Source of the DNA: an uncultured Verrucomicrobiae bacterium
Lineage (GTDB): Bacteria > Verrucomicrobiota > Verrucomicrobiia > Chthoniobacterales > UBA10450
Length of the DNA: 64,000 nt
Direction of reading: 5' to 3'
NCBI GenBank assembly: GCA_963772365.1
Contig: CAVYXA010000001.1
Span: forward strand, 768,001 to 832,000
The position numbers were made by a program, and so were the translations under genes. Numbering within the stretch: the stretch's first letter is position 1; each line of letters opens with the position of its first letter. Shown one piece after another: positions 6,769 to 17,516 of the stretch. The notes beneath the pieces are model-generated. The model saw only the letters and a program-made list of their open reading frames with translations. It had not been told where the DNA came from and did not search any database.

Positions 6769-7312
6769 GGTTCTTATTTGTTTTTGGCTGAGATTCCAAT
6801 TGTGAACCGGGTTGGGTGGTGTCGGCTGGAAACAATTCTCGCTGTGCTGGATTGATTTTAACGGTCCGGCCGAGTTTCTGAATCGCATCCACAAATTCAT
6901 CGACATCTTCGAACCGGCGATGCACCGAGGCGTATCGCAAATACGCTACCTCATCAATGCCACGCAATTTCTCCAGGACTTTGCCGCCGATCTGCGATGA
7001 ATGAACTTCGCGTCCGCTGGTTTCCAATTCGTGAACGATGTCATCCACGAGCTCCTCGAGTGTCAGGAGACTTGTGGACCGTTTTTCAAAAGCTTTGGCG
7101 ATGCTGGTGGCAAGCTTGCGCCGGTCAAACGGTTCGTGAGTGCGCCGATCGCGTTTAATTACTCGCAGATCCGATCGCTCAATCTCCTCGTAAGTCGTGA
7201 AACGATAACTGCACTTTAGACATTGTCGGCGACGGCGGATACTGGCGCTATCGCGCGACTGTCGGGAATCGATGACCTTGTCATCACGAGACCCGCACTT
7301 GGGGCAACGCAT
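6755..7312 (-). CDS. nrdR: transcriptional repressor NrdR
   Basis: MRCPKC..DKVIDSR..IRRRRQC..RFTTYE; ATP-cone; VAYLRYASV. Confidence 0.97.
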   Translation of the reverse strand: MRCPKCGSRDDKVIDSRQSRDSASIRRRRQCLKCSYRFTTYEEIERSDLRVIKRDRRTHEPFDRRKLATSIAKAFEKRSTSLLTLEELVDDIVHELETSGREVHSSQIGGKVLEKLRGIDEVAYLRYASVHRRFEDVDEFVDAIQKLGRTVKINPAQRELFPADTTQPGSQLESQPKTNKNHGRV

Positions 7313-7333
7313 GGTGTAAAGAGAGTAACTAGC

Positions 7334-7349
7334 ACACTATTAGTTGTGG
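7334..7349. promoter_or_regulatory. putative NrdR box upstream of nrdR
   Basis: ACACTATTAGTTGTGG matches 12 of 16 positions of acaCwAtATaTwGtgt; adjacent minus-strand TTGACT (-35) at 7350-7355. Confidence 0.5.
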
Positions 7350-7406
7350 AGTCAATACTCATTCATTCGGTCGTTTGACTTTGGGCCGCAGAGCTCGAGC
7401 AGATCT

Positions 7407-7745
7407 CTAGCAATTTGCGCTGCGCAATTCGATGATTCGCCGGGTCGCGCGCTTACAACGTTCGAGTTCCCGAACGGCATCGATTTCCGATAGATGTTGA
7501 GCTGCATAAGATGGCCGCGCCGGCCGCAGAGAAACTTGAACAACATCATTGGCAATCGCCGCTCGATGAATGGATTGCAGGTTGGGAGCTTTTTCCGCTG
7601 CGGCCAGCAAACCGTCACGCGTTGCGATATAGGCATTGATTTCTTGCAAAATCGCGCGGGAACTCGTGACAGGACTTATCGAAGGGCGGCGACTTTTTGG
7701 TTTGATAGCAGAACGGGGTGGAACTGTGGGTTGAGTGATTTGCAT
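7407..7745 (-). CDS. hypothetical protein
   Basis: 112-aa ATG ORF filling the gap between nrdR and obgE. Confidence 0.45.
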   Translation of the reverse strand: MQITQPTVPPRSAIKPKSRRPSISPVTSSRAILQEINAYIATRDGLLAAAEKAPNLQSIHRAAIANDVVQVSLRPARPSYAAQHLSEIDAVRELERCKRATRRIIELRSANC

Positions 7746-7869
7746 ACAGTCTCTTGAAGCAACTCACATGCCCTTCGATACCACGCCTTCTCGCCCGTAG
7801 TGACATCACTCGAAGACGATGTAACGATGTAACGCTTCAATCTTGCTACGCTTAGAAATCTCCAAGCTC

Positions 7870-8952
7870 ATGTTTGTCGACCGTATCAAAGTTCTTGCAC
7901 AAGCTGGTAACGGCGGGCGTGGTTGCGTCAGTTTTCGGCGGGAGAAATTTGTCCCGAAGGGCGGACCTGACGGAGGCGATGGTGGCCGCGGCGGCGATGT
8001 AATCCTGCGTGCCGATCGACACGTCGATAGTCTTTCGAATCTTTTTTACGAACCAATCATTAAGGCGAAAAATGGCGGACATGGCATGGGAAAGAAAATG
8101 CATGGACGTTCCGCGCCGGCAAAGATCGTGCAGGTGCCGGTGGGAACAATTGGTTGGGAGGCGGAATCAAAGTCGGTCATCCTGAGCGAAAGCGAAGGAT
8201 CCCGTGATGCCCCCTTAAAGCTTTCGCAACGGGATTCCTCGGCTTCGCTCGGAATGACGAGTGGGGAACCGGTGGTCGATCTTATCCAGGACGGGCAGGA
8301 GTTTGTTCTGTGCCAGGGTGGAAAGGGCGGCAAGGGAAACGTGCATTTCAAGAGCTCGCGAAACCGCGCCCCGCGCGAATACACCGAAGGCGAAGAAGGC
8401 GAGGCGGGACATTTCCTGCTTGAACTGCGCACGATCGCCGACGGGGCCCTCGTTGGTTATCCGAATGCCGGCAAGTCGACTTTGCTTCGAAAAATTTCCG
8501 CCGCGCGCCCGAAGGTCGCGTCTTACCCATTTACGACGCTCCATCCGATCATCGGAGTGGTGGAATTTCCCGGTTATCGCCGCGCGGCCATCGCCGACAT
8601 TCCCGGCCTGATCGAAGGCGCGCATCGCGGGCTTGGGCTCGGTCACGAATTTTTACGGCACATCACTCGATGTCGGATCTTTCTCTTCGTTGTCGATGCT
8701 GCCGGAAGCGAAGGTCGGAGTCCGGTGGAAGATTTACAACAACTGCGACGCGAGATCGATCTCTACGATTCACGCTTGTCAGAGCGACCGTGGTTCGTGA
8801 TCGCCAACAAAATGGATCTGGGCGACGCGAGTGAAAATTTAAAAGCCTTGCGCAAACGATTCCCAAAAATCGAGATCGTCGCGGTTTCAGCCGCGAAAGG
8901 CGAAAACATCGATACACTAAAGAACAAGCTAGCCGACTGGCTCAAGCTGTAG
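7870..8952 (+). CDS. obgE: GTPase ObgE with an in-frame repeat insertion
   Basis: MFVDRIK, SFRREKFVPKGGPDGGDGG, GYPNAGKST, DIPGLIEGA, NKMD. Confidence 0.97.
   Translation: MFVDRIKVLAQAGNGGRGCVSFRREKFVPKGGPDGGDGGRGGDVILRADRHVDSLSNLFYEPIIKAKNGGHGMGKKMHGRSAPAKIVQVPVGTIGWEAESKSVILSESEGSRDAPLKLSQRDSSASLGMTSGEPVVDLIQDGQEFVLCQGGKGGKGNVHFKSSRNRAPREYTEGEEGEAGHFLLELRTIADGALVGYPNAGKSTLLRKISAARPKVASYPFTTLHPIIGVVEFPGYRRAAIADIPGLIEGAHRGLGLGHEFLRHITRCRIFLFVVDAAGSEGRSPVEDLQQLRREIDLYDSRLSERPWFVIANKMDLGDASENLKALRKRFPKIEIVAVSAAKGENIDTLKNKLADWLKL
8176..8258. repeat. family B palindrome in frame within obgE
   Basis: GTCATCCTGAGCGAAAGCGAAGGATCCC...GGGATTCCTCGGCTTCGCTCGGAATGAC, translated as VILSESEGSRDAPLKLSQRDSSASLGMT. 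Confidence 0.9.
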
Positions 8953-9027
8953 GCTGTCCCAATCGACAGGATTTGCCGCGGGGAAATCAGGACCGCCGCC
9001 GTCGAGGAATCGATATGGAACGAGGTG

Positions 9028-12000
9028 TTAATATTCGTGCTCCCAGTCATGACCGTCCGTGCAACAGTTCGTCACGTGCGTTGATTCGCGCTGAAGCGAC
9101 GCGCCGATCTTCGGATCGAAGTTCATCAAGAAGAGGTCGGGACTGGAATAATCAATGGCCTTCGACACAGTGCAATACAGTCCGGACTCGCCATCGAACC
9201 GCATCCCATTGAACAAATATGGATTTCCGATGGCGCTGGCAGGCAGCGGATTGCCTGAGCCGTCGAAGAAGTGCGGATCGCCGAAATCTTCGTATTCGTA
9301 CCGTTCAGCCGCGCCCCCAGCAGGGTTGGTCAACGGCCAGATCGCAACATCGGACCCCGCTCCGACATAGGTGAAATTATTCCCTGCGCGACGCATCTCG
9401 ACTGGGGCTAGCGAATATCGAGGATCCAACAATTCAGGCCAGGGGCCGCGTCCATCGTCCATCGTGCGCAAGTTAAAAGCCCAGTCGCTCTCGCGATATT
9501 GAACACAGTAGTCGCGCTGGCAAGAGCATTGGTCATCGCACATTTCGCCACCACGTTCTGTACAGACACCAATCGGGGGGAGCGGCTGGATCGGGAGATG
9601 TGGCAAATCGACCATCGTGCACAATACCCACCAGGGTAGAGACCCGCCACCGCCGTTCCAATCTCCTCCGCGAACCGGTACCGTGCTGTAGCCTGCTGTT
9701 ACCCCGCCGCTGCCGTCGCGCTCCTCCAGAACAGTGCGTCCAGTATAAAAGAAATTCGTGGTGTTCGGTTTCCCGTCGGGATCGAGTGTCTTCGCGATGC
9801 GACGACCATGCGCGTCGTATTGATAATTGGCAATCCGCAGACCGGTATTCACGTCGGTAAAATCGACAAGACGGTTTGCGTAATCGTAGGTGTAGTTCTT
9901 GTTCGCGCCGCCGCCGTTGAGACTAGTGCGGTTGCCATTGGCGTCGTACAAATAGTTGCCGCGGGGCGTGCTGGTATACTGGCTCATCTGCGCATCCGCG
10001 GGCTCGGGCGTCGTGTTATCCAGGAAATAGGGCCCGGGATCGGGTGTTTGAAAACCATTCACGGCAAGCCGATTGCCGTTGCGGTCGTAATTGTAAATCG
10101 TGTCGCGCACAAGTGTCGGGCCGGGCGCGTTCACTTGCGTATGCACATTTCGATTTGCCGGGTCGTAATCATAATGATGCAAAAGTTGCGGCCCGCCCGA
10201 GCGGGTGTCTGCGCGCTCGCTCAGGTTTTGGTTGGCATCGTAAGTAAAAGTGCGTTGATCGAGAACGATGTTGCCGAGTTGAAGCGTAACCGTGCCGGCC
10301 ACCTGTCCCCAGCCAAGGTCGGAGCTTGGCGGCGCGTCGACAAATCCATTGTAGCTGAACAATGTCGATGTTGCATTGCGGTGCGAAACACTCTCAGTCC
10401 GGCGTCCAATGTAATTATACGTCGCCATGGTTCCCAATGTATCGCCATCGCTTGTCGCCGTTAGGCTGACGCTCGTACAAAGATTTGCCACGTCGTGCGC
10501 GTAAGTGAGTGTGCGTCCACTCGGCGATTGCAACGTCAACAAATTGCCGACCGCGTCGTGTGTGTAGCTCGTAACCAGGTTCCCTAAACTTTCGCTGGTG
10601 CGGTGCGCCAGTGAATCGAAGGTGTAGCGCACGACTGCTGCATTGTTGATCGCGCGCTCAGGCCAGCGGTATTCGCCAGGGTAATCGTAAATCTCAAACG
10701 TTGTGGCGTTGGATACTCCCGGGCCGGGAATGATCTGGCGCTGACGAAGCCGATTCAGATTGTCGTAGTTATTGATACAGACAGTTGCGTTCTCATCGTG
10801 GGATTGAACTGCGTTGCCCCAGGCATCATAGCTCCAGGTTTTCGCCGTGGTGTCGGCATTCGTCCGCTGAAGACAGCGGCCCAGCGCATCGTACTGATAC
10901 TGGGTCGAATACGAATTGGGATTGGTCGCGCCGGTCAAACGCGAATTGTCATCCCAAATCCGCCCACTAATGACGTCGATCCCGGCGTCGAATCCTGAAC
11001 CGTTTCCGTTCATGTCGCGTCCGCTTCGGAGCAATCGATTCAGACCGTCATACTCGGATTGAACGAGCTTATTTCGCGGATCGATATATCGCACTCGATT
11101 GCTGCGCGAGTTGTACAAATAGCTTTGGGCATTCCCCACGTTGTCAGTCGAGGTAATTAGCCGATCCAAACCATCATAGACATTCGTCAGAACAAATACT
11201 TGATCCGACGACGCCGAATCTGATTTATCGGTCCGCGTCCGCGTCACCAGATTTCCATTTGAATCGTAGGTGTAATCGACGGAATTGGCTTTTGGATCGG
11301 TGATGCGTGAAAGGCGATTCGCGCCGTCATACGAAAACGATGTCGCGTGTCCGTTGTCATCTGTCACGCTTGTTACATTCAGCGCCGGATCACGTCCGAT
11401 TGAGATCGTGCGCGCGCCATCGTCGATCGTGGCCGTCGTGATCGGATCAAACCAACTCTCGGTCCTCTGGGTCAGAATACCGTTGGTATCGTAAACAAAC
11501 GTCCCGCCGCGTAGTGGGCCGAAGTTTGGATTGCCCTTCGCATCGAGAAAAGTCCCCTGCATCGTGAAATTCGTGACTTGATGGTTTTCATTGTAACCGT
11601 ACTGCGTGTTGGTTCCGACCGGATCGGTTAACATTGTTAGGCGATCAAAGCCGTCATAATCGTAAAGCGTCGTGTGCTGCAGCCCGGCGGGCGCACCAGT
11701 TTCGAGCCTGGCCAGATTACCATTGAGATCGTAGGTGAATTTCGAGCCGGTGGCGATTGGACTACTGGGCGCCCTGATCGCCGTAAACGGAAGATTCCGT
11801 TCATCGAATGCGTACCGCACGCGGGCATCCGGTTGCAAGCCGCCGGCCGCCAGCGGCGAGCGCATTTCGATCAACTCGCGAATCGGATCATAAAAGTATT
11901 GCGCCGTGATCGTGTGCGCATTGTCCAAGTCGCGTGTGATCGAAGTCACATGATCGAGTGAATCAAAACTGAAGCTGGTGACGAAAAACGCCGGCGTCCC

Positions 12001-14469
12001 AATGCCGCCGAATTCGTCCTTGTTTTGCACATCGACACGCGTGATCCGGTTGTTGGCGTCGCGGTAAATATTCGTGAGAAAACGTCCCGGCGTCCCCGCA
12101 TCGCGCGAAGTAACCTGCACGACTTGATTCAATTGATTAACGAAAAATTGCGTATCGTTCCCGCGAGGATCGACAATCTGTGTGACGCATCCGACTGAAT
12201 TGTGCGTGAACGCGGTCGTCAGATTTAATCCGCCGGCATCGCGAATGAACGATTGCAGATATCCATTTTGCGCGCCGCTGGTGTAATAATGCCACTCATC
12301 GCGTTCGCGATGACCGGTATTGTTCTGCGGCCAGACGATCGCAGTGAGCTGACCGTTCGCGTTGTGTTCGATGTCGGTCGTCACTCCATCCGGCCTGGTT
12401 ACGCTCATTGCGTTTCCGTTCGCATCGCGCGCGCATGTCCAAGTGAACCCGCGCGCGTCGGTACGCGCGACGCACCAACCAACTAATGGGTCACCGGTCT
12501 CAAAGATTCCGCCACCGACTTCCCCAAGGCTGGCCAACTCAGGGATATGGTCGTAGGGAGCCTCGTCTTCCTCCATCCGGATCTTGTGGGCTGCGCCCGA
12601 GCCGTCGCCAAATCCGACATGATAATAGATCCCCGTGTAGTCTATTCCGTCGCCGTTCAAATCACCGTATATAGGTCCGGCCTTACATTTGATGCCATCA
12701 CCTAATTTTAAGTAGTCTTCGACTCTGCATTGCAGGCGGCTGGAGAAGTCGAAGTCCGATTCGCGATATTGGACGCAGTAGTGGCTTGATGAGACGTCCT
12801 CGTCGATGTAGTCCACCATGTTGCACGCGTTTACGGCCTGAATGTAAGGTCCAGGGTCGCCGTTACCGTTGAAGAACGTTTTCTCGAAGCCGAAGTTGAA
12901 CTGCGGCGCGAGCGGTGTCCTCTCGCCGGTTCCGAAGCCGGATGCGTATTCGAAGTGTTGCACAAGCGGCGCGCCGCTGACTGGTAATTGCCGATGCGTC
13001 CGTAAATTTCCGCGTTCGCGCGGATTCGTATTTGGATCGAGATCACGCTGATAAACCATTTCGACACCATTCCCGCGCGGAAATGTCACTCTACTCGGCA
13101 GCGAGTCGCGGTTCCATTCGATTGTTGTTTCGAAAAACGCCGGATCGGTCGGGCGCACGGGATTCATCGGGCGGTTTGAGCTCTCGGTCACCGGAACTCC
13201 TGGTGTCGATCTTCCGGTGAAGCGCCGCAAATCAATCAGCCGATTTTTCGAATCAAACAGTGATTCATGGACGTTGCCGATCGCATCATTCACGATCGTC
13301 TTTGTCGCCGCGTTGAACCGGCTCGTCGGACTCGTCCTGGCCAGATACGTGAAGATCTTCGTCTCGTTCGCGGTGCCGACGATTTCACTGGCCACTCGGT
13401 CGTAAAGAAAACTAGTCGCTGCCGCCGTCGTTGTATAAACGGCTTGAAACCATGGCACGTTGTTTCCGTCTTTCGCGGTCAGCAGATTGTGATCTCGCCC
13501 ACCTCCAAGTCCGGTGCTGTAGGTAAACTGCGCCGTTTTTCCCGAGGGAAAATCGTTACCGATCGGCGTGCCGGTAACCGCTTGTGACCGGACAAGAACG
13601 AGATCGCCCACGTCTCCGATGCCAGGAGTCGGGCTGGTGAGATGTTGATATTGAATCGTACGGCCCGCGAAATCCTGAACAGCCTGAATCCGATTCGCGC
13701 CATCGTAGCTGATTTGAAACGGCCGATTCAGGCTGTCGATGATCAGGAACAACCGGCCCGCGCCGTCGTATTGAAACTGAATCTGGTTGGAATTGCGATC
13801 GATGATCTTGTCGATCTTGCCCGATGTCGGCGAACCGTTGAGCGACTTGAAGATCCATCTCGTCTTATCGGCAAATTCCAACGTGAAAACCTTTTCGGAA
13901 AGCGTGCCGCGCCGGAAGAGTTCGTCGGTAGAATATGATCCGTCCGATTGAAGAAAGTAAGTATCGATCCGGTTCTGCCCGTCTTGGACAGTGACGTTCG
14001 GCCCACTCAGCGCCGCGCGAATGTTGTAGGAAAAATCCCAGTTCACGCCCATCGCCGTGTCCAATCCGATTTTCGAACGATAGGTTCGGCCCCAAACCAG
14101 ATCGAGACCGCGTCCCGAAATAACAAGATCAAGGTACTCAACGAACAATTCGCCAGTGGCTTCGTTGACTCTGGGAACGCCGAAGAGCGGCTGAAGCTTG
14201 TTTACGGCGTCGAGCATTGTGAAAAATGGTTTATCCGAGTAGCGAGGGACAATGTCGTTGAAGTCGAAATCGCCCTGCACGGGCCACTGATCCTCAAAAA
14301 GAAAGCTGCCCAGATGGACCCTTTGCGAATTCACAGCCGGCGCAGTCGGTGGAGATTCCTGATCATTGCCGCCGACCGCACTTTGAAGGAGCGCAACGAT
14401 TGCGGCGAATGTAACAATCCATCGTCGCCACGCGTTGGAGCGAGCAAATCCGCGAAGACAAGTTTTCAT
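9028..14469 (-). CDS. Rhs/YD-repeat protein (DUF6531-like N-domain) with Sec signal, motif-mosaic inserts and no C-terminal toxin
   Basis: MKTCLR..hydrophobic signal; VNEATGEL..GRGLDLVWGRTYRS..GVNW; many YD repeats; core end NPYLFNGMRFDGESGLY. Confidence 0.9.
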   Translation of the reverse strand: MKTCLRGFARSNAWRRWIVTFAAIVALLQSAVGGNDQESPPTAPAVNSQRVHLGSFLFEDQWPVQGDFDFNDIVPRYSDKPFFTMLDAVNKLQPLFGVPRVNEATGELFVEYLDLVISGRGLDLVWGRTYRSKIGLDTAMGVNWDFSYNIRAALSGPNVTVQDGQNRIDTYFLQSDGSYSTDELFRRGTLSEKVFTLEFADKTRWIFKSLNGSPTSGKIDKIIDRNSNQIQFQYDGAGRLFLIIDSLNRPFQISYDGANRIQAVQDFAGRTIQYQHLTSPTPGIGDVGDLVLVRSQAVTGTPIGNDFPSGKTAQFTYSTGLGGGRDHNLLTAKDGNNVPWFQAVYTTTAAATSFLYDRVASEIVGTANETKIFTYLARTSPTSRFNAATKTIVNDAIGNVHESLFDSKNRLIDLRRFTGRSTPGVPVTESSNRPMNPVRPTDPAFFETTIEWNRDSLPSRVTFPRGNGVEMVYQRDLDPNTNPRERGNLRTHRQLPVSGAPLVQHFEYASGFGTGERTPLAPQFNFGFEKTFFNGNGDPGPYIQAVNACNMVDYIDEDVSSSHYCVQYRESDFDFSSRLQCRVEDYLKLGDGIKCKAGPIYGDLNGDGIDYTGIYYHVGFGDGSGAAHKIRMEEDEAPYDHIPELASLGEVGGGIFETGDPLVGWCVARTDARGFTWTCARDANGNAMSVTRPDGVTTDIEHNANGQLTAIVWPQNNTGHRERDEWHYYTSGAQNGYLQSFIRDAGGLNLTTAFTHNSVGCVTQIVDPRGNDTQFFVNQLNQVVQVTSRDAGTPGRFLTNIYRDANNRITRVDVQNKDEFGGIGTPAFFVTSFSFDSLDHVTSITRDLDNAHTITAQYFYDPIRELIEMRSPLAAGGLQPDARVRYAFDERNLPFTAIRAPSSPIATGSKFTYDLNGNLARLETGAPAGLQHTTLYDYDGFDRLTMLTDPVGTNTQYGYNENHQVTNFTMQGTFLDAKGNPNFGPLRGGTFVYDTNGILTQRTESWFDPITTATIDDGARTISIGRDPALNVTSVTDDNGHATSFSYDGANRLSRITDPKANSVDYTYDSNGNLVTRTRTDKSDSASSDQVFVLTNVYDGLDRLITSTDNVGNAQSYLYNSRSNRVRYIDPRNKLVQSEYDGLNRLLRSGRDMNGNGSGFDAGIDVISGRIWDDNSRLTGATNPNSYSTQYQYDALGRCLQRTNADTTAKTWSYDAWGNAVQSHDENATVCINNYDNLNRLRQRQIIPGPGVSNATTFEIYDYPGEYRWPERAINNAAVVRYTFDSLAHRTSESLGNLVTSYTHDAVGNLLTLQSPSGRTLTYAHDVANLCTSVSLTATSDGDTLGTMATYNYIGRRTESVSHRNATSTLFSYNGFVDAPPSSDLGWGQVAGTVTLQLGNIVLDQRTFTYDANQNLSERADTRSGGPQLLHHYDYDPANRNVHTQVNAPGPTLVRDTIYNYDRNGNRLAVNGFQTPDPGPYFLDNTTPEPADAQMSQYTSTPRGNYLYDANGNRTSLNGGGANKNYTYDYANRLVDFTDVNTGLRIANYQYDAHGRRIAKTLDPDGKPNTTNFFYTGRTVLEERDGSGGVTAGYSTVPVRGGDWNGGGGSLPWWVLCTMVDLPHLPIQPLPPIGVCTERGGEMCDDQCSCQRDYCVQYRESDWAFNLRTMDDGRGPWPELLDPRYSLAPVEMRRAGNNFTYVGAGSDVAIWPLTNPAGGAAERYEYEDFGDPHFFDGSGNPLPASAIGNPYLFNGMRFDGESGLYCTVSKAIDYSSPDLFLMNFDPKIGASLQRESTHVTNCCTDGHDWEHEY

Positions 14470-14658
14470 AACGATGCCTTTCCAGTTCAGCGCCGTTACC
14501 AACCCACCGCCTCGCGGCAATCTGCGAAAGGCGGCCTGAAAACCGCCCGCAGCGTCGAACGCCCGATTTAAATCAGATGCCCGGCCTAACGGCAAGCTTA
14601 ACTTTCTATTTCAATCGCATCCTTGCGAAGGCTCTTTGGACATTGGAGTTTGTTGCGA

Positions 14659-15603
14659 ATGCCTCGCTTCCAAACGAATTCTCCTCTGACTTTCGAGCCG
14701 ATTTTCATGGAACGAATTTGGGGGGGGCGCCGGCTTGAGTCGGAATTCGGCAAGAAACTGCCGCCTGGCATGAGCATCGGTGAATCGTGGGAACTTGTCG
14801 ATCGTCCGGAAGCGCAAAGCGTCGTCCGAAATGGTGAGTTGCGCGGGAAAACGCTACACGAGCTCTGGATGCAGCATCGACAATCGATCTTCGGCAATAT
14901 CCTCGATGCTCCACGATTTCCGCTGCTCGTGAAATTGCTCGATGCGCGCGAGAAGCTGTCCCTTCAAGTTCATCCCCCGGAAAAAATCGCCGCGAAATTA
15001 GGCGGCGAGCCGAAAACCGAATTCTGGTACATCGCCGCGGCTGATCCAGGCGCCCGGCTGTTTGTCGGATTACGAGGACCGATGAGCCGCTTGCAATTTG
15101 AAGCCGCCCTCCGGTCCGGAACCGTAGAGCAACACGTTCATACCATTTCAGTGAAAGGAGGCGACGCGATGTTTCTTCCGGCAGGTCGCTTCCATGCAAT
15201 CGGCGCCGGCAATCTGTTAGTCGAGATTCAGCAGAACAGCGACACCACGTATCGGGTGTTCGACTGGAATCGAGCTGATGCCAACGGGAAGCCTCGACAG
15301 TTGCATATCGAGCAAGCACTCGAGTCCATCGACTTCGAGGATGTTCGACCAGAATTGGCTCGAGCCGAAGGCGAAACTCTGGTGCGCAATTCGCTGTTCG
15401 AAGTTGTGAAATGGAAACTCGATTCTCCCCGTGAAATCGCACCCCGCGGGAAACTTGCCATCGTTTGCAGCCTCAGCGGTAACGTTCGCTGCGGTGATGT
15501 CGATCTTGAGCCCGGAGAATTTTTTCTGGTTCCGGCGGAGTCATGCGCGCGACAAGTTGAAGCAGTTCGAGGAGAAGCGAGCTTGTTGCGGATCACAATT
15601 TAA
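14659..15603 (+). CDS. manA: type I mannose-6-phosphate isomerase
   Basis: RIWGG, IGESWE, LSLQVHP, KTEFW, EIQQNSDTTYRVFDW. Confidence 0.92.
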   Translation: MPRFQTNSPLTFEPIFMERIWGGRRLESEFGKKLPPGMSIGESWELVDRPEAQSVVRNGELRGKTLHELWMQHRQSIFGNILDAPRFPLLVKLLDAREKLSLQVHPPEKIAAKLGGEPKTEFWYIAAADPGARLFVGLRGPMSRLQFEAALRSGTVEQHVHTISVKGGDAMFLPAGRFHAIGAGNLLVEIQQNSDTTYRVFDWNRADANGKPRQLHIEQALESIDFEDVRPELARAEGETLVRNSLFEVVKWKLDSPREIAPRGKLAIVCSLSGNVRCGDVDLEPGEFFLVPAESCARQVEAVRGEASLLRITI

Positions 15604-15831
15604 AGGCGATTAAACTCAGTCCCTCGCGACTAAGTTTACGCCATGATCCACGCGTTCCGCTCTTGGTTCAGGTTTTTCACCGGAATCGCGTTTGGCTTTT
15701 GCGGTTTGCATTTGTGGGGCGGATTGGACATAAAAATCGCGCCGGTTCCGCACAACGAAATACAGATCAGCACGATCGTGATCTTCGCCGCTGGCCTCAT
15801 GACATAGATCTCCCGAGCTTACCGCGTGCCT

Positions 15832-16140
15832 TCAGCCGAAAGCCTGCCCGAGCCGGCGCAAGTAAGTAAAGCTGTAAATTCCGGTATTGTGTCCATCGGC
15901 CCAGCGAGGCTGGAGCGCATAACCGCCGATCAGATCAAAACTGCTAAGCTGAAAACTTTTGTGCGTGTAATTGACCTGTGGACGAGAAATGTTGCCGAGC
16001 ACATCCGGCTCGCCGCCGCATGCGGCGCAAGGGCAGGCCCGGCGCAGCATCTCCAGATTGAAATACGATTCGGTGCCGTCGTTCCAAGCGATGGCCAATT
16101 CATCGCCCACCTGTTGAATGTTTGTTGGTTCCAAACGCAT
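15832..16140 (-). CDS. DUF971 / GBBH-like N-terminal domain protein
   Basis: LRRACPCAAC; WADGHNTGIYSF. Confidence 0.88.
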   Translation of the reverse strand: MRLEPTNIQQVGDELAIAWNDGTESYFNLEMLRRACPCAACGGEPDVLGNISRPQVNYTHKSFQLSSFDLIGGYALQPRWADGHNTGIYSFTYLRRLGQAFG

Positions 16141-16156
16141 CCGTTTTAGGAATTTT

Positions 16157-16255
16157 AGCCACGGATTAACACAGATGAAACACAGATAAGAGAAGCGGTT
16201 TATATTTTAGAGTTCGTAGTCAGGAATCCGTGAAAATCCGTGTTCATCTGTGGCT
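16157..16255. repeat. repeat family C (CCACGGATTAACACAGATGAAACACAGAT...ATCCGTGAAAATCCGTGTTCATCTGTGG)
   Basis: Inverted arms with ~10-nt internal periodicity; the right arm encodes the YggS C-terminal extension. Confidence 0.75.
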
Positions 16256-16952
16256 TTCTCTTTTCCCGGCCTTGATCGTTCCCCGAAAATTGCCGTGCCG
16301 ACGCGCACCAGCGTCGCACCTTCTTCAACTGCCACCGGGTAATCGTTCGTCATCCCCATCGAAAGCTGTGGAAGCTTCAACTCGAATTCTTTTTCCAAGG
16401 CGTCGCGCAGATCGCGCAACTGGAAAAAAACTTCCGCGACGCTTCGGCTTCTTTGGCCAGCGGCGGAATTGTCATCAAGCCTTCGATCGACAACCGATGC
16501 AGCGCGAGGAGCGATTCCATTTCTCCCCGAAGCGTTTCCGGTTTGAATCCAAATTTACTCCCCTCCCCCGAGACATTCACTTCCAACAAGGTTCGCGGGT
16601 GCATGCCGTCTTCTTCCGCGATCCGATTGATCTCTTCCGCCAACGCCAGCGAATCGATGCTGTGAAACAGTTCGAACAACGGAAGCGCGTGGCGAATCTT
16701 ATTTTTTTGGAGATGCCCGACAAAGTGCCATCGCAAACTCGATGGCAGTTCCGGAATCTTCGCTCGCGCTTCCTGGACGCGGCTTTCACCGAACAATGAT
16801 TGGCCCACATTGTATGCCTCACGAACGCGCTCGGCAGTGTGCGTTTTCGAGATCGCAACGAGCTCCACTTCCTCCACGGAACGTCCACTCTTTCGGGCGG
16901 CATCTGCGATTCTGGCGCGAACACGTTCAAGGTTCTCAGCGATGTTCGACAT
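16207..16952 (-). CDS. yggS: YggS/PLP homeostasis protein (single frameshift near 16425)
   Basis: [26 protein letters not shown] in one frame; [17 protein letters not shown] in another; break lies in an A7 run. Confidence 0.9.
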
Positions 16953-17066
16953 ATGGAATGCTAGCCCAATCATTCGCTTCGGAAACTGCAACATCGGAAT
17001 GGCGTCGACACCATCGATCGGAGTCTGAACGCTTGCGCCCGGACGAGAGGTCGTCGATCTTCCCCG

Positions 17067-17516
17067 GTGAAAACTTTCGCTCTTGGGATCATCGCTGCGT
17101 TTGGCTTCTTCGCTGTTTCGGTTGCGCAAGCGGATTCACCGTGGCTAACGGATTACAAAAGAGCGCAGGAGCAAGCCAAATCCAGTAACAAGCTGCTCTT
17201 GCTCGAGTTTACGGGCTCGGATTGGTGTCCGCCCTGCCGAATGCTCCAGAGAGACGTTCTCTCGGCTCCGGAGTTTCAGGATTATGCGAAAAAGAATTTT
17301 GTCCTGGTCGAGATTGATTTCCCGCGGGCAAAAAAGCAATCGCGTGAACTGGCCGAGCAAAACCAAATGTTGGCCCAGCGTTTTGGCATTCAGGCTTTTC
17401 CTTCGGTGATCATTTTGAACAGTGAAGGAAAGAAAATCGGCGAGCTGATCGGATACGACCCCCGTGCGGGCAAAAAGGGCTTTATGGACTCGCTCGAAAA
17501 CATTCGCAAAGGCTGA
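17067..17516 (+). CDS. exported thioredoxin-family protein
   Basis: Signal peptide; FTGSDWCPPC. Confidence 0.9.
   Translation: MKTFALGIIAAFGFFAVSVAQADSPWLTDYKRAQEQAKSSNKLLLLEFTGSDWCPPCRMLQRDVLSAPEFQDYAKKNFVLVEIDFPRAKKQSRELAEQNQMLAQRFGIQAFPSVIILNSEGKKIGELIGYDPRAGKKGFMDSLENIRKG

Follow-up and report, generated by a model that had tools for sequence, protein, structure and literature searches.

The protein P0001, encoded by an Rhs/YD-repeat gene of an uncultured Verrucomicrobiae bacterium, is best explained as a domesticated Rhs shell devoid of toxin and carrying a collage of short conserved peptides, mostly from VgrG and tube proteins. We give this reading a probability of about one half. The gene encodes an Rhs shell which has lost the DPxG motif and the toxin. 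Foreign pieces are present in frame and are reused at different sites, blocks are swapped between close relatives, and the pieces are conserved at the protein level. The window was the whole stretch of 64,000 nucleotides analysed from the host genome (G000, 90% complete).

The Rhs Gene and Its Locus

The gene and its surroundings comprised the following features:

9028..14469 (−): Rhs/YD-repeat gene (P0001), 1813 aa, ORF intact
14371..14469 (−): signal-peptide-like N-terminus, approximately aa 1–33, basic, hydrophobic and with a small-residue end, as read from the sequence
14149..14175 (−): PRVNEATGE, similar to the PVxxxxGE motif of N-terminal Rhs autocleavage (putative cleavage, from motif likeness)
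12922..14199 (−): shell part 1, with DUF6531 at 13957–14169 (profile search and model)
9688..12462 (−): shell part 2, YD hairpin repeats (profile search and models)
9031..9075 (−): tail (site E), 15 aa, at the usual place of DPxG and the toxin domain (orthologue anchors)
14623..15603 (+): manA-like neighbour, divergent from the Rhs gene
7843..8952 (+): obgE-like neighbour, convergent, ending 75 bp from the Rhs stop

The profile search found DUF6531 and 14 RHS_repeat stretches in P0001, and the repeats of the gene were those expected of YD units. Two overlapping parts were modelled with AlphaFold (residues 91–1123 and 1016–1813), the whole protein not being folded as one. In both, the beta shell was modelled with confidence, and pLDDT was below 50 in patches B and C, part of D, and the tail. 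Low values are to be expected wherever an alignment offers no support. The first model matched RhsA (7q97) with a Foldseek E-value of 1e-39 and a TM score of 0.54. Profiles and models thus describe a YD/RHS repeat array folding as a beta-hairpin container, which defines an Rhs shell. From its signal-peptide-like start, this shell is probably exported by Sec.

PVxxxxGE and DPxG are described as the N-terminal and C-terminal Rhs autocleavage motifs (10.1101/2024.02.26.582050). The alignment with relatives located no DPxG motif in P0001. Neither a C-terminal toxin domain nor an adjacent immunity gene was present in the 15-aa tail and the neighbours read, and there is no room for an immunity gene since only 75 bp separate the Rhs stop from the convergent gene. 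The toxin-less shell described by the initial annotation was therefore recovered. No PAAR domain or full VgrG was found in P0001 by profile search, and no VgrG or Hcp parts of a T6SS, hence no delivery machine, in G000.

The neighbours are presumed to be obgE and manA, as named in the initial annotation. The locus had been placed between these two genes, whereas the orthologous site adjoins manA only, the Rhs gene being divergent from it in three of three orthologous loci. In a congener, obgE lies directly beside manA without an Rhs gene, and no insertion scar was read at this empty site. The obgE-like gene itself contains, at approximately 8170–8260 of the window, an in-frame insertion (VILSESEGS...RDSSASLGMT) which resembles a palindromic REP-type element; the alignment with the congener's obgE breaks at residues 109–142. 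No Rfam match was obtained in window positions 7000–17500, and promoter and terminator counts were at the shuffle level.

Patches of Foreign Sequence

The patch limits were defined by shell anchors common to P0001 and its orthologues, and agree with the four ranges at which the YD scaffold had initially been described as interrupted:

14200..14328 (−): patch A, 43 aa, with an LruC-motif piece at 14248–14298 (anchors and profile match)
12463..12921 (−): patch B, 153 aa (anchors; pLDDT below 50)
12829–12864 (−): NGDPGPYIQAVN-like piece in patch B
12733–12780 (−): VgrG piece in patch B (profile match)
12688–12714 (−): Hcp-like piece in patch B, label unproven (resemblance)
12625–12669 (−): GDxNGDG-repeat piece in patch B (matches to repeat proteins)
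12556–12585 (−): KIRMEEDEAP in patch B, resembling VgrG IRMQEEAAP (sequence likeness)
9406..9687 (−): patch C, 94 aa (anchors; pLDDT below 50)
9658–9675 (−): VRGGDW in patch C
9532–9552 (−): GGEMCDD in patch C
9481–9516 (−): second VgrG piece, in patch C (profile match)
9439–9468 (−): putative Asp-box-like piece in patch C
9121..9171 (−): patch D, 17 aa, with a K..D..SP motif common to orthologues at this site; Hcp-like, unproven

Patches B and C each carry the same VgrG core motif, matched by TIGR03361 (E-values of 1.8e-5 and 2.1e-4, respectively) and by Phage_GPD (1.1e-4 and 3.7e-5). Against a local VgrG profile they scored 22.8 and 24.5 bits, with shuffle maxima of 3.4 and 1.7, and none of 1000 shuffles reached either score. 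Phage_GPD passed its own cut-off in P0001; TIGR03361 reached 34.7 bits against a cut-off of 186, the best stretch covering 26 of 513 positions. The LruC piece of patch A was matched by TIGR04456 (E-value 9.7e-9) over 24 of 243 model positions, the domain being incomplete in P0001. The motif labels initially proposed were in this way confirmed by library profiles for VgrG and LruC. The two Hcp-like pieces and VRGG.W had no support in profile searches, including no PF05638 match for the former, and beat shuffles only with patterns written post hoc; BLASTP gave no alignment between site D and one real Hcp. The Hcp and FGE labels in P0001 are thus resemblances and unproven. The GDLNGDG piece had been taken for a dockerin or EF-hand; it matches GDWNGDGIDTIGLY-repeat proteins and not a dockerin.

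Among 1.84 billion representatives, patch B had four matches and no end-to-end relative. Two of the four were GDWNGDG-repeat proteins, aligned to residues 78–101 only. The ESM Atlas gave a lead to a Phage_GPD cluster (0.89), and PHROGs returned nothing significant for the patches. None of the patches aligned over its full length with a folded domain; the absence of the parent domains from P0001, as initially claimed, is borne out.

Orthologues and Distribution

The protein search returned 860 relatives, of which the best 120, P0001 among them, were analysed; none of the conclusions depends on the unpublished genome G008. The closest eight among the matches listed aligned across the shell and were unaligned at five sites, with 58–81% identity in the shell versus 4–20% in the patches. 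TIGR03361 was matched by 9 of 15 patch queries from four genomes, at sites A, B, and C. Hcp pieces scored in the orthologues P0010 and P0011 (E-value approximately 4e-8), a 25-residue piece of three orthologues matched the Hcp protein P0229, and one orthologue carried Gp5 repeats (E-value 5.9e-21). Exact 7-mers common to different variable sites numbered 42, versus a mean of 4.2 and a maximum of 9 in 30 shuffles. The predicted pattern of a kept shell, same-site patches which cannot be aligned, and one reused motif vocabulary was therefore found.

The Rhs collage gene is rare, being found in 6 of 355 family genomes and in 6 of 401 phylum genomes, G000 being counted in each; this rarity, and its absence from the congener's site, count against the explanation preferred here. 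A metagenome scan gave three weak, unrelated Rhs matches. The exact P0001 protein forms a cluster of one, which could indicate that the collage is an assembly or basecalling artefact. We regard this as extremely improbable: orthologues taken from ENA, JGI, Logan, and NCBI agree in their breakpoints and have pieces in common, in other clusters a patch is found unchanged in more than one record, the frame runs through 5.4 kb without a break, and copies of a motif carry silent differences.

In 11 of 13 pairs from near-identical clusters, the variable sites were 97–100% identical, the exceptions being frameshifted and partial records. The change of the collage is consequently a slow block replacement and not a within-strain hypervariation.

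In a FastTree tree of 1443 core columns and 120 rows with midpoint root, P0001 fell within a clade of 31 proteins (support 0.985). Among the rows in which the anchor pattern matched, DPxG is retained by none of 21 clade proteins and by 36 of 59 proteins outside the clade (10 clade and 30 other rows were without anchor). A mosaic score based on exact 7-mers was not associated with the loss of DPxG (3/8 vs. 48/112, P 1.0). Partial Pfam matches in clade members (18 proteins) included the EF-Tu domain 3, cold-shock, RRM, eCIS_core, CIS_tube, and Phage_base_V, and one EF-Tu piece recurred in 7 of the 31 clade proteins. HU pieces were also seen in the collage text of relatives. Spike and other machine pieces such as those of VgrG are thus part of the vocabulary, as first suggested, but the vocabulary extends beyond injection and surface machines to EF-Tu, cold-shock, RRM, and HU.

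Three proteins that do not belong to the clade (P0016, P0041, and P0065) have an intact DPxG with collage text where the toxin would lie, which suggests that the collage may have arisen repeatedly. The same three proteins, together with the dominance of spike and tube pieces, could fit a cargo toxic by mimicry, the collage replacing the toxin and jamming the injection machines of neighbours or tripping defence sensors. This is quite improbable for P0001, whose tail is only 15 aa without DPxG, whose genome yielded no delivery machine, and whose patches are predicted to be unstructured.

Several features of individual relatives were also noted. Residues 1618–1689 of P0065 form a near-complete HU domain (PF00216, E-value 6e-22) directly behind the intact DPxG, followed by collage. 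A distant member (L099:5428-11637, approximately 26% identity) uses HAINTKGAGAN at two places, and the usual terminus of the core is absent from its end. Some captured pieces have been multiplied into short tandem repeats (P0009, P0087, P0018, P0041), and the copy number of one tandem unit differs between P0018 and P0260.

In-Register Overwrites of the Shell

The replacement of shell strands by VgrG motifs in register is a new element of this gene family. The initial annotation missed it, as well as KIRMEEDEAP in patch B. In P0001 it corresponds to one feature:

10669..10695 (−): EIYDYPGEY, a VgrG motif in place of the family's E.Y.YDGLSR (predicted shell strand and turn)

At this site most homologues have E.Y.YDGLSR, whereas P0001 and seven others (8 of the 120 listed) have E.YDYPG.Y. 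The EIYDYPGEY-type motif occurs in 74 of 109 VgrG. A second VgrG motif, found in 82 of 109 VgrG, was present at two other shell sites in 7 of the 120 listed homologues, one of them outside the clade.

The genomes G178 and G181 carry a paralogous second collage Rhs at another locus (L048/L049), beside an AAA ATPase gene. The two paralogues share approximately 90% DNA identity and contain many frameshifts, both assemblies being indel-rich. Comparison of 11 shell blocks between them revealed three clusters of change (at least 6 of 10 residues). In two of the three, a family-typical stretch is replaced in G181 by a VgrG-like peptide of equal length, with best VgrG matches of 8/11 and 10/15 in G181 versus 5/11 and 7/15 in G178. 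In one swap 7 of 14 free third positions changed, compared to approximately 0.13 silent changes per codon elsewhere, which indicates a templated origin. In the other, none of the seven free third positions changed, an ambiguous result that point mutations acquired one by one would explain as well. In both swaps the DNA is still partly identical to the sequence it replaced. Such swaps between close relatives support the short-fragment capture put forward initially.

Known VgrG-Rhs fusions (PDB 8qja; 10.1101/2024.02.26.582050) and the dominance of VgrG pieces near P0001 raise the alternative that the pieces were left behind by the decay of an ancestral fusion of VgrG or Hcp with Rhs. This alternative is already largely refuted and very improbable: the pieces are out of order, duplicated, and unlike between orthologues, new pieces arise inside the shell in G181, and a fusion cannot supply EF-Tu, cold-shock, and HU pieces.

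Reading Frame and Selection

In four genes, 22 of 22 VgrG 7-mer runs were in the coding frame and none in the other five frames. Five further genes gave 17 in-frame runs versus 3, two of these genes having none in frame. The two YCVQYRESD copies of P0001 differ at four of nine codons, including a serine codon switch. The VgrG piece at site A, compared among three orthologues, kept 15 of 19 residues with 5–7 of 13 codons changed, and evolved like the shell (76–77% identity, 48–52% of codons changed). The captured regions are among the most conserved of VgrG, with a modest P of 0.02 in an ascertainment simulation on four regions, the VgrG set being biased as it was retrieved with two of the same motifs. 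Over a 55-codon stretch of patch, the G178/G181 pair differs by 5 silent changes and by no replacement, 6 being expected from the rate of the shell (Poisson P 0.003); compared to the shell ratio, the 5:0 count is not significant (Fisher P 0.07), and it comes from one indel-rich assembly pair. We consider it likely that selection on the peptides keeps the captured pieces.

The main rival of our explanation is a mutational attractor. Tolerant loops of a dispensable exported shell would be overwritten by microhomology patches, the peptides having no function. Conservation would come from re-templating, selection would keep only the frame and the fold, and the words would drift to the commonest in the DNA pool. 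Overwrites do fall where the shell already resembles the motif, one of the silent changes in the G178/G181 stretch switches a serine codon at all three bases, abundant families with no relation to one another are mixed in the vocabulary, and the GC3 of the patches equals that of the shell in four of five comparisons. SPDIR (short-patch double illegitimate recombination) produces templated patches of 3–100 bp at imperfect microhomologies from intra- or extragenomic DNA, as a rare mutation generating highly variable sequence in Acinetobacter baylyi (10.1101/2023.11.22.568220). An attractor of this kind does not account for the absence of out-of-frame or antisense VgrG pieces reported above. In the 355 family genomes, short VgrG matches (model positions 128–167 and 366–411) were confined to the collage family, and G000 yielded no further collage gene. 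The composite junction SRLMEEEGI.YNLEGDPD occurs at the same site in P0005 and in the distant paralogue of G178. On this balance, a function-free origin appears somewhat unlikely.

Source of the Pieces

No parent gene of VgrG, Hcp, or LruC was found in G000: the Phage_GPD and LruC profiles matched the P0001 gene only, and the Hcp and RVT_1 profiles had no match. In three orthologue genomes VgrG matches were restricted to the collage gene, and two of these genomes possess separate Hcp-domain genes. None of the four queried genomes has a full vgrG, which was present in 3 of the 355 family genomes. Two tandem Hcp-domain genes with signal-peptide-like starts were observed at L035:835-2343, in a genome without full vgrG.

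The codon use of the patches is host-like (GC3 of 0.56–0.63 versus 0.62–0.64), so that their composition gives no indication of the donors. In the G181 swaps no donor was found, the swapped DNA matching three real vgrG loci no better than unswapped DNA. The DNA pattern of DSFFD[IV]F gave five matches in 355 genomes versus two for the reversed control, and no second scaffold was shown. The matches included one orthologue, one ordinary enzyme, and two not placed in frame. As for the same motifs elsewhere in G000, RGG.W occurs in another ORF and PPDTNGDVGPNHYIQAVN in a secreted protein. Weak similarity of the patches to two proteins of the host, a secreted PPDTNGDVGPNHY protein (E-value 0.065) and DnaJ (0.12), may be due to chance. 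A dnaJ-like frame at G000:C1:244875-245360 ends after approximately 160 codons, probably owing to an assembly frameshift.

Diversity-generating retroelements (DGRs) and cassette gene conversion (TprK, VlsE, pilE) combine a constant scaffold with fixed variable regions. The fixed variable sites of the collage shell resemble this organization, and a programmed diversification from in-genome donors was therefore considered. The DGR and cassette models are not borne out. RVT_1 was found neither in G000 (90% complete) nor in four of five other carriers (thus in one of six), none of the 881 patch 18-mers occurred elsewhere in G000 (best blastn E-value 0.076), and no patch-flanking repeats were seen in P0001. 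The near-identity of variable sites in 11 of 13 close pairs and the lack of any shared neighbour across families add to these results, and this explanation is highly improbable. DprA was found in five of five carriers searched, which is uninformative for SPDIR. Templated capture of short patches is the best fit, the donors probably being other collage genes or DNA from outside the genome.

Proposed Model and Comparison with Known Systems

We propose that the shell of P0001 would be an emptied Rhs toxin container, probably Sec-exported. Pieces would arrive as templated replacements of 10–45 codons at partial matches, in an SPDIR- or gene-conversion-like manner, the donors being DNA outside the genome or other collage genes. 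Selection at the peptide level would then keep them. The shell could work as a putative bait or decoy for motif-binding proteins, such as the injection-machine partners of rivals or the sensors of predators or hosts. This last role is offered tentatively: a decoy is hard to reconcile with the EF-Tu, cold-shock, RRM, and HU pieces and with the in-strand overwrites, and isolated pieces of 10–20 aa do not necessarily resemble the parent in its folded form.

The fold of the shell is known, and the collage does not belong to any of the systems compared. Like Rhs polymorphic toxins (RhsA, PDB 7Q97; Tse5, Tse15, Tre23; PF05593, PF20148), P0001 has the YD-hairpin shell, DUF6531, and a PVxxxxGE-like motif; unlike them it lacks a PAAR or VgrG domain, DPxG, toxin, and immunity gene, and has a signal-peptide-like start. 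Variation affects internal loops and strands, whereas in these toxins the C-terminal toxin is exchangeable. VgrG-Rhs fusions and evolved VgrG/Hcp (PDB 8QJA; TIGR03361, PF05638) likewise place VgrG or Hcp sequence within an Rhs polypeptide. The collage pieces differ in being only 9–45 residues long (approximately 90 for the Gp5 repeat of one orthologue) and out of order; those from VgrG score far below family cut-offs and cannot form a spike. The patch size of SPDIR fits the collage replacements, which differ from it in being in frame, concentrated in one gene, and of a recurring vocabulary. Compared to DGRs and cassette conversion, the collage uses foreign protein motifs, does not vary among near-identical strains, and has no template or cassette that could be found. 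A literature search, with subscription journals mostly outside its scope, found no published description of such mosaics.

In practice, collage pieces cause false VgrG, Hcp, and Phage_GPD annotations. The family also makes the process testable, as it offers an alignable scaffold, known ancestral states, and a close pair with single overwrite events. A wider and more doubtful view is that soil bacteria might maintain foreign motifs as an inherited library encoded in protein. Fragments of conserved genes of the community would be entered in frame into scaffolds destined for export (here an emptied Rhs shell) and retained as putative baits, decoys, or triggers directed at injection machines and at receptors that sense motifs, the vocabulary circulating between unrelated scaffolds and phyla by an undescribed route. 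If the collage reading is true, proteins can be built from sub-domain pieces of unrelated families, and those of this family would possibly be a record of, or a defence against, the machines of neighbours.
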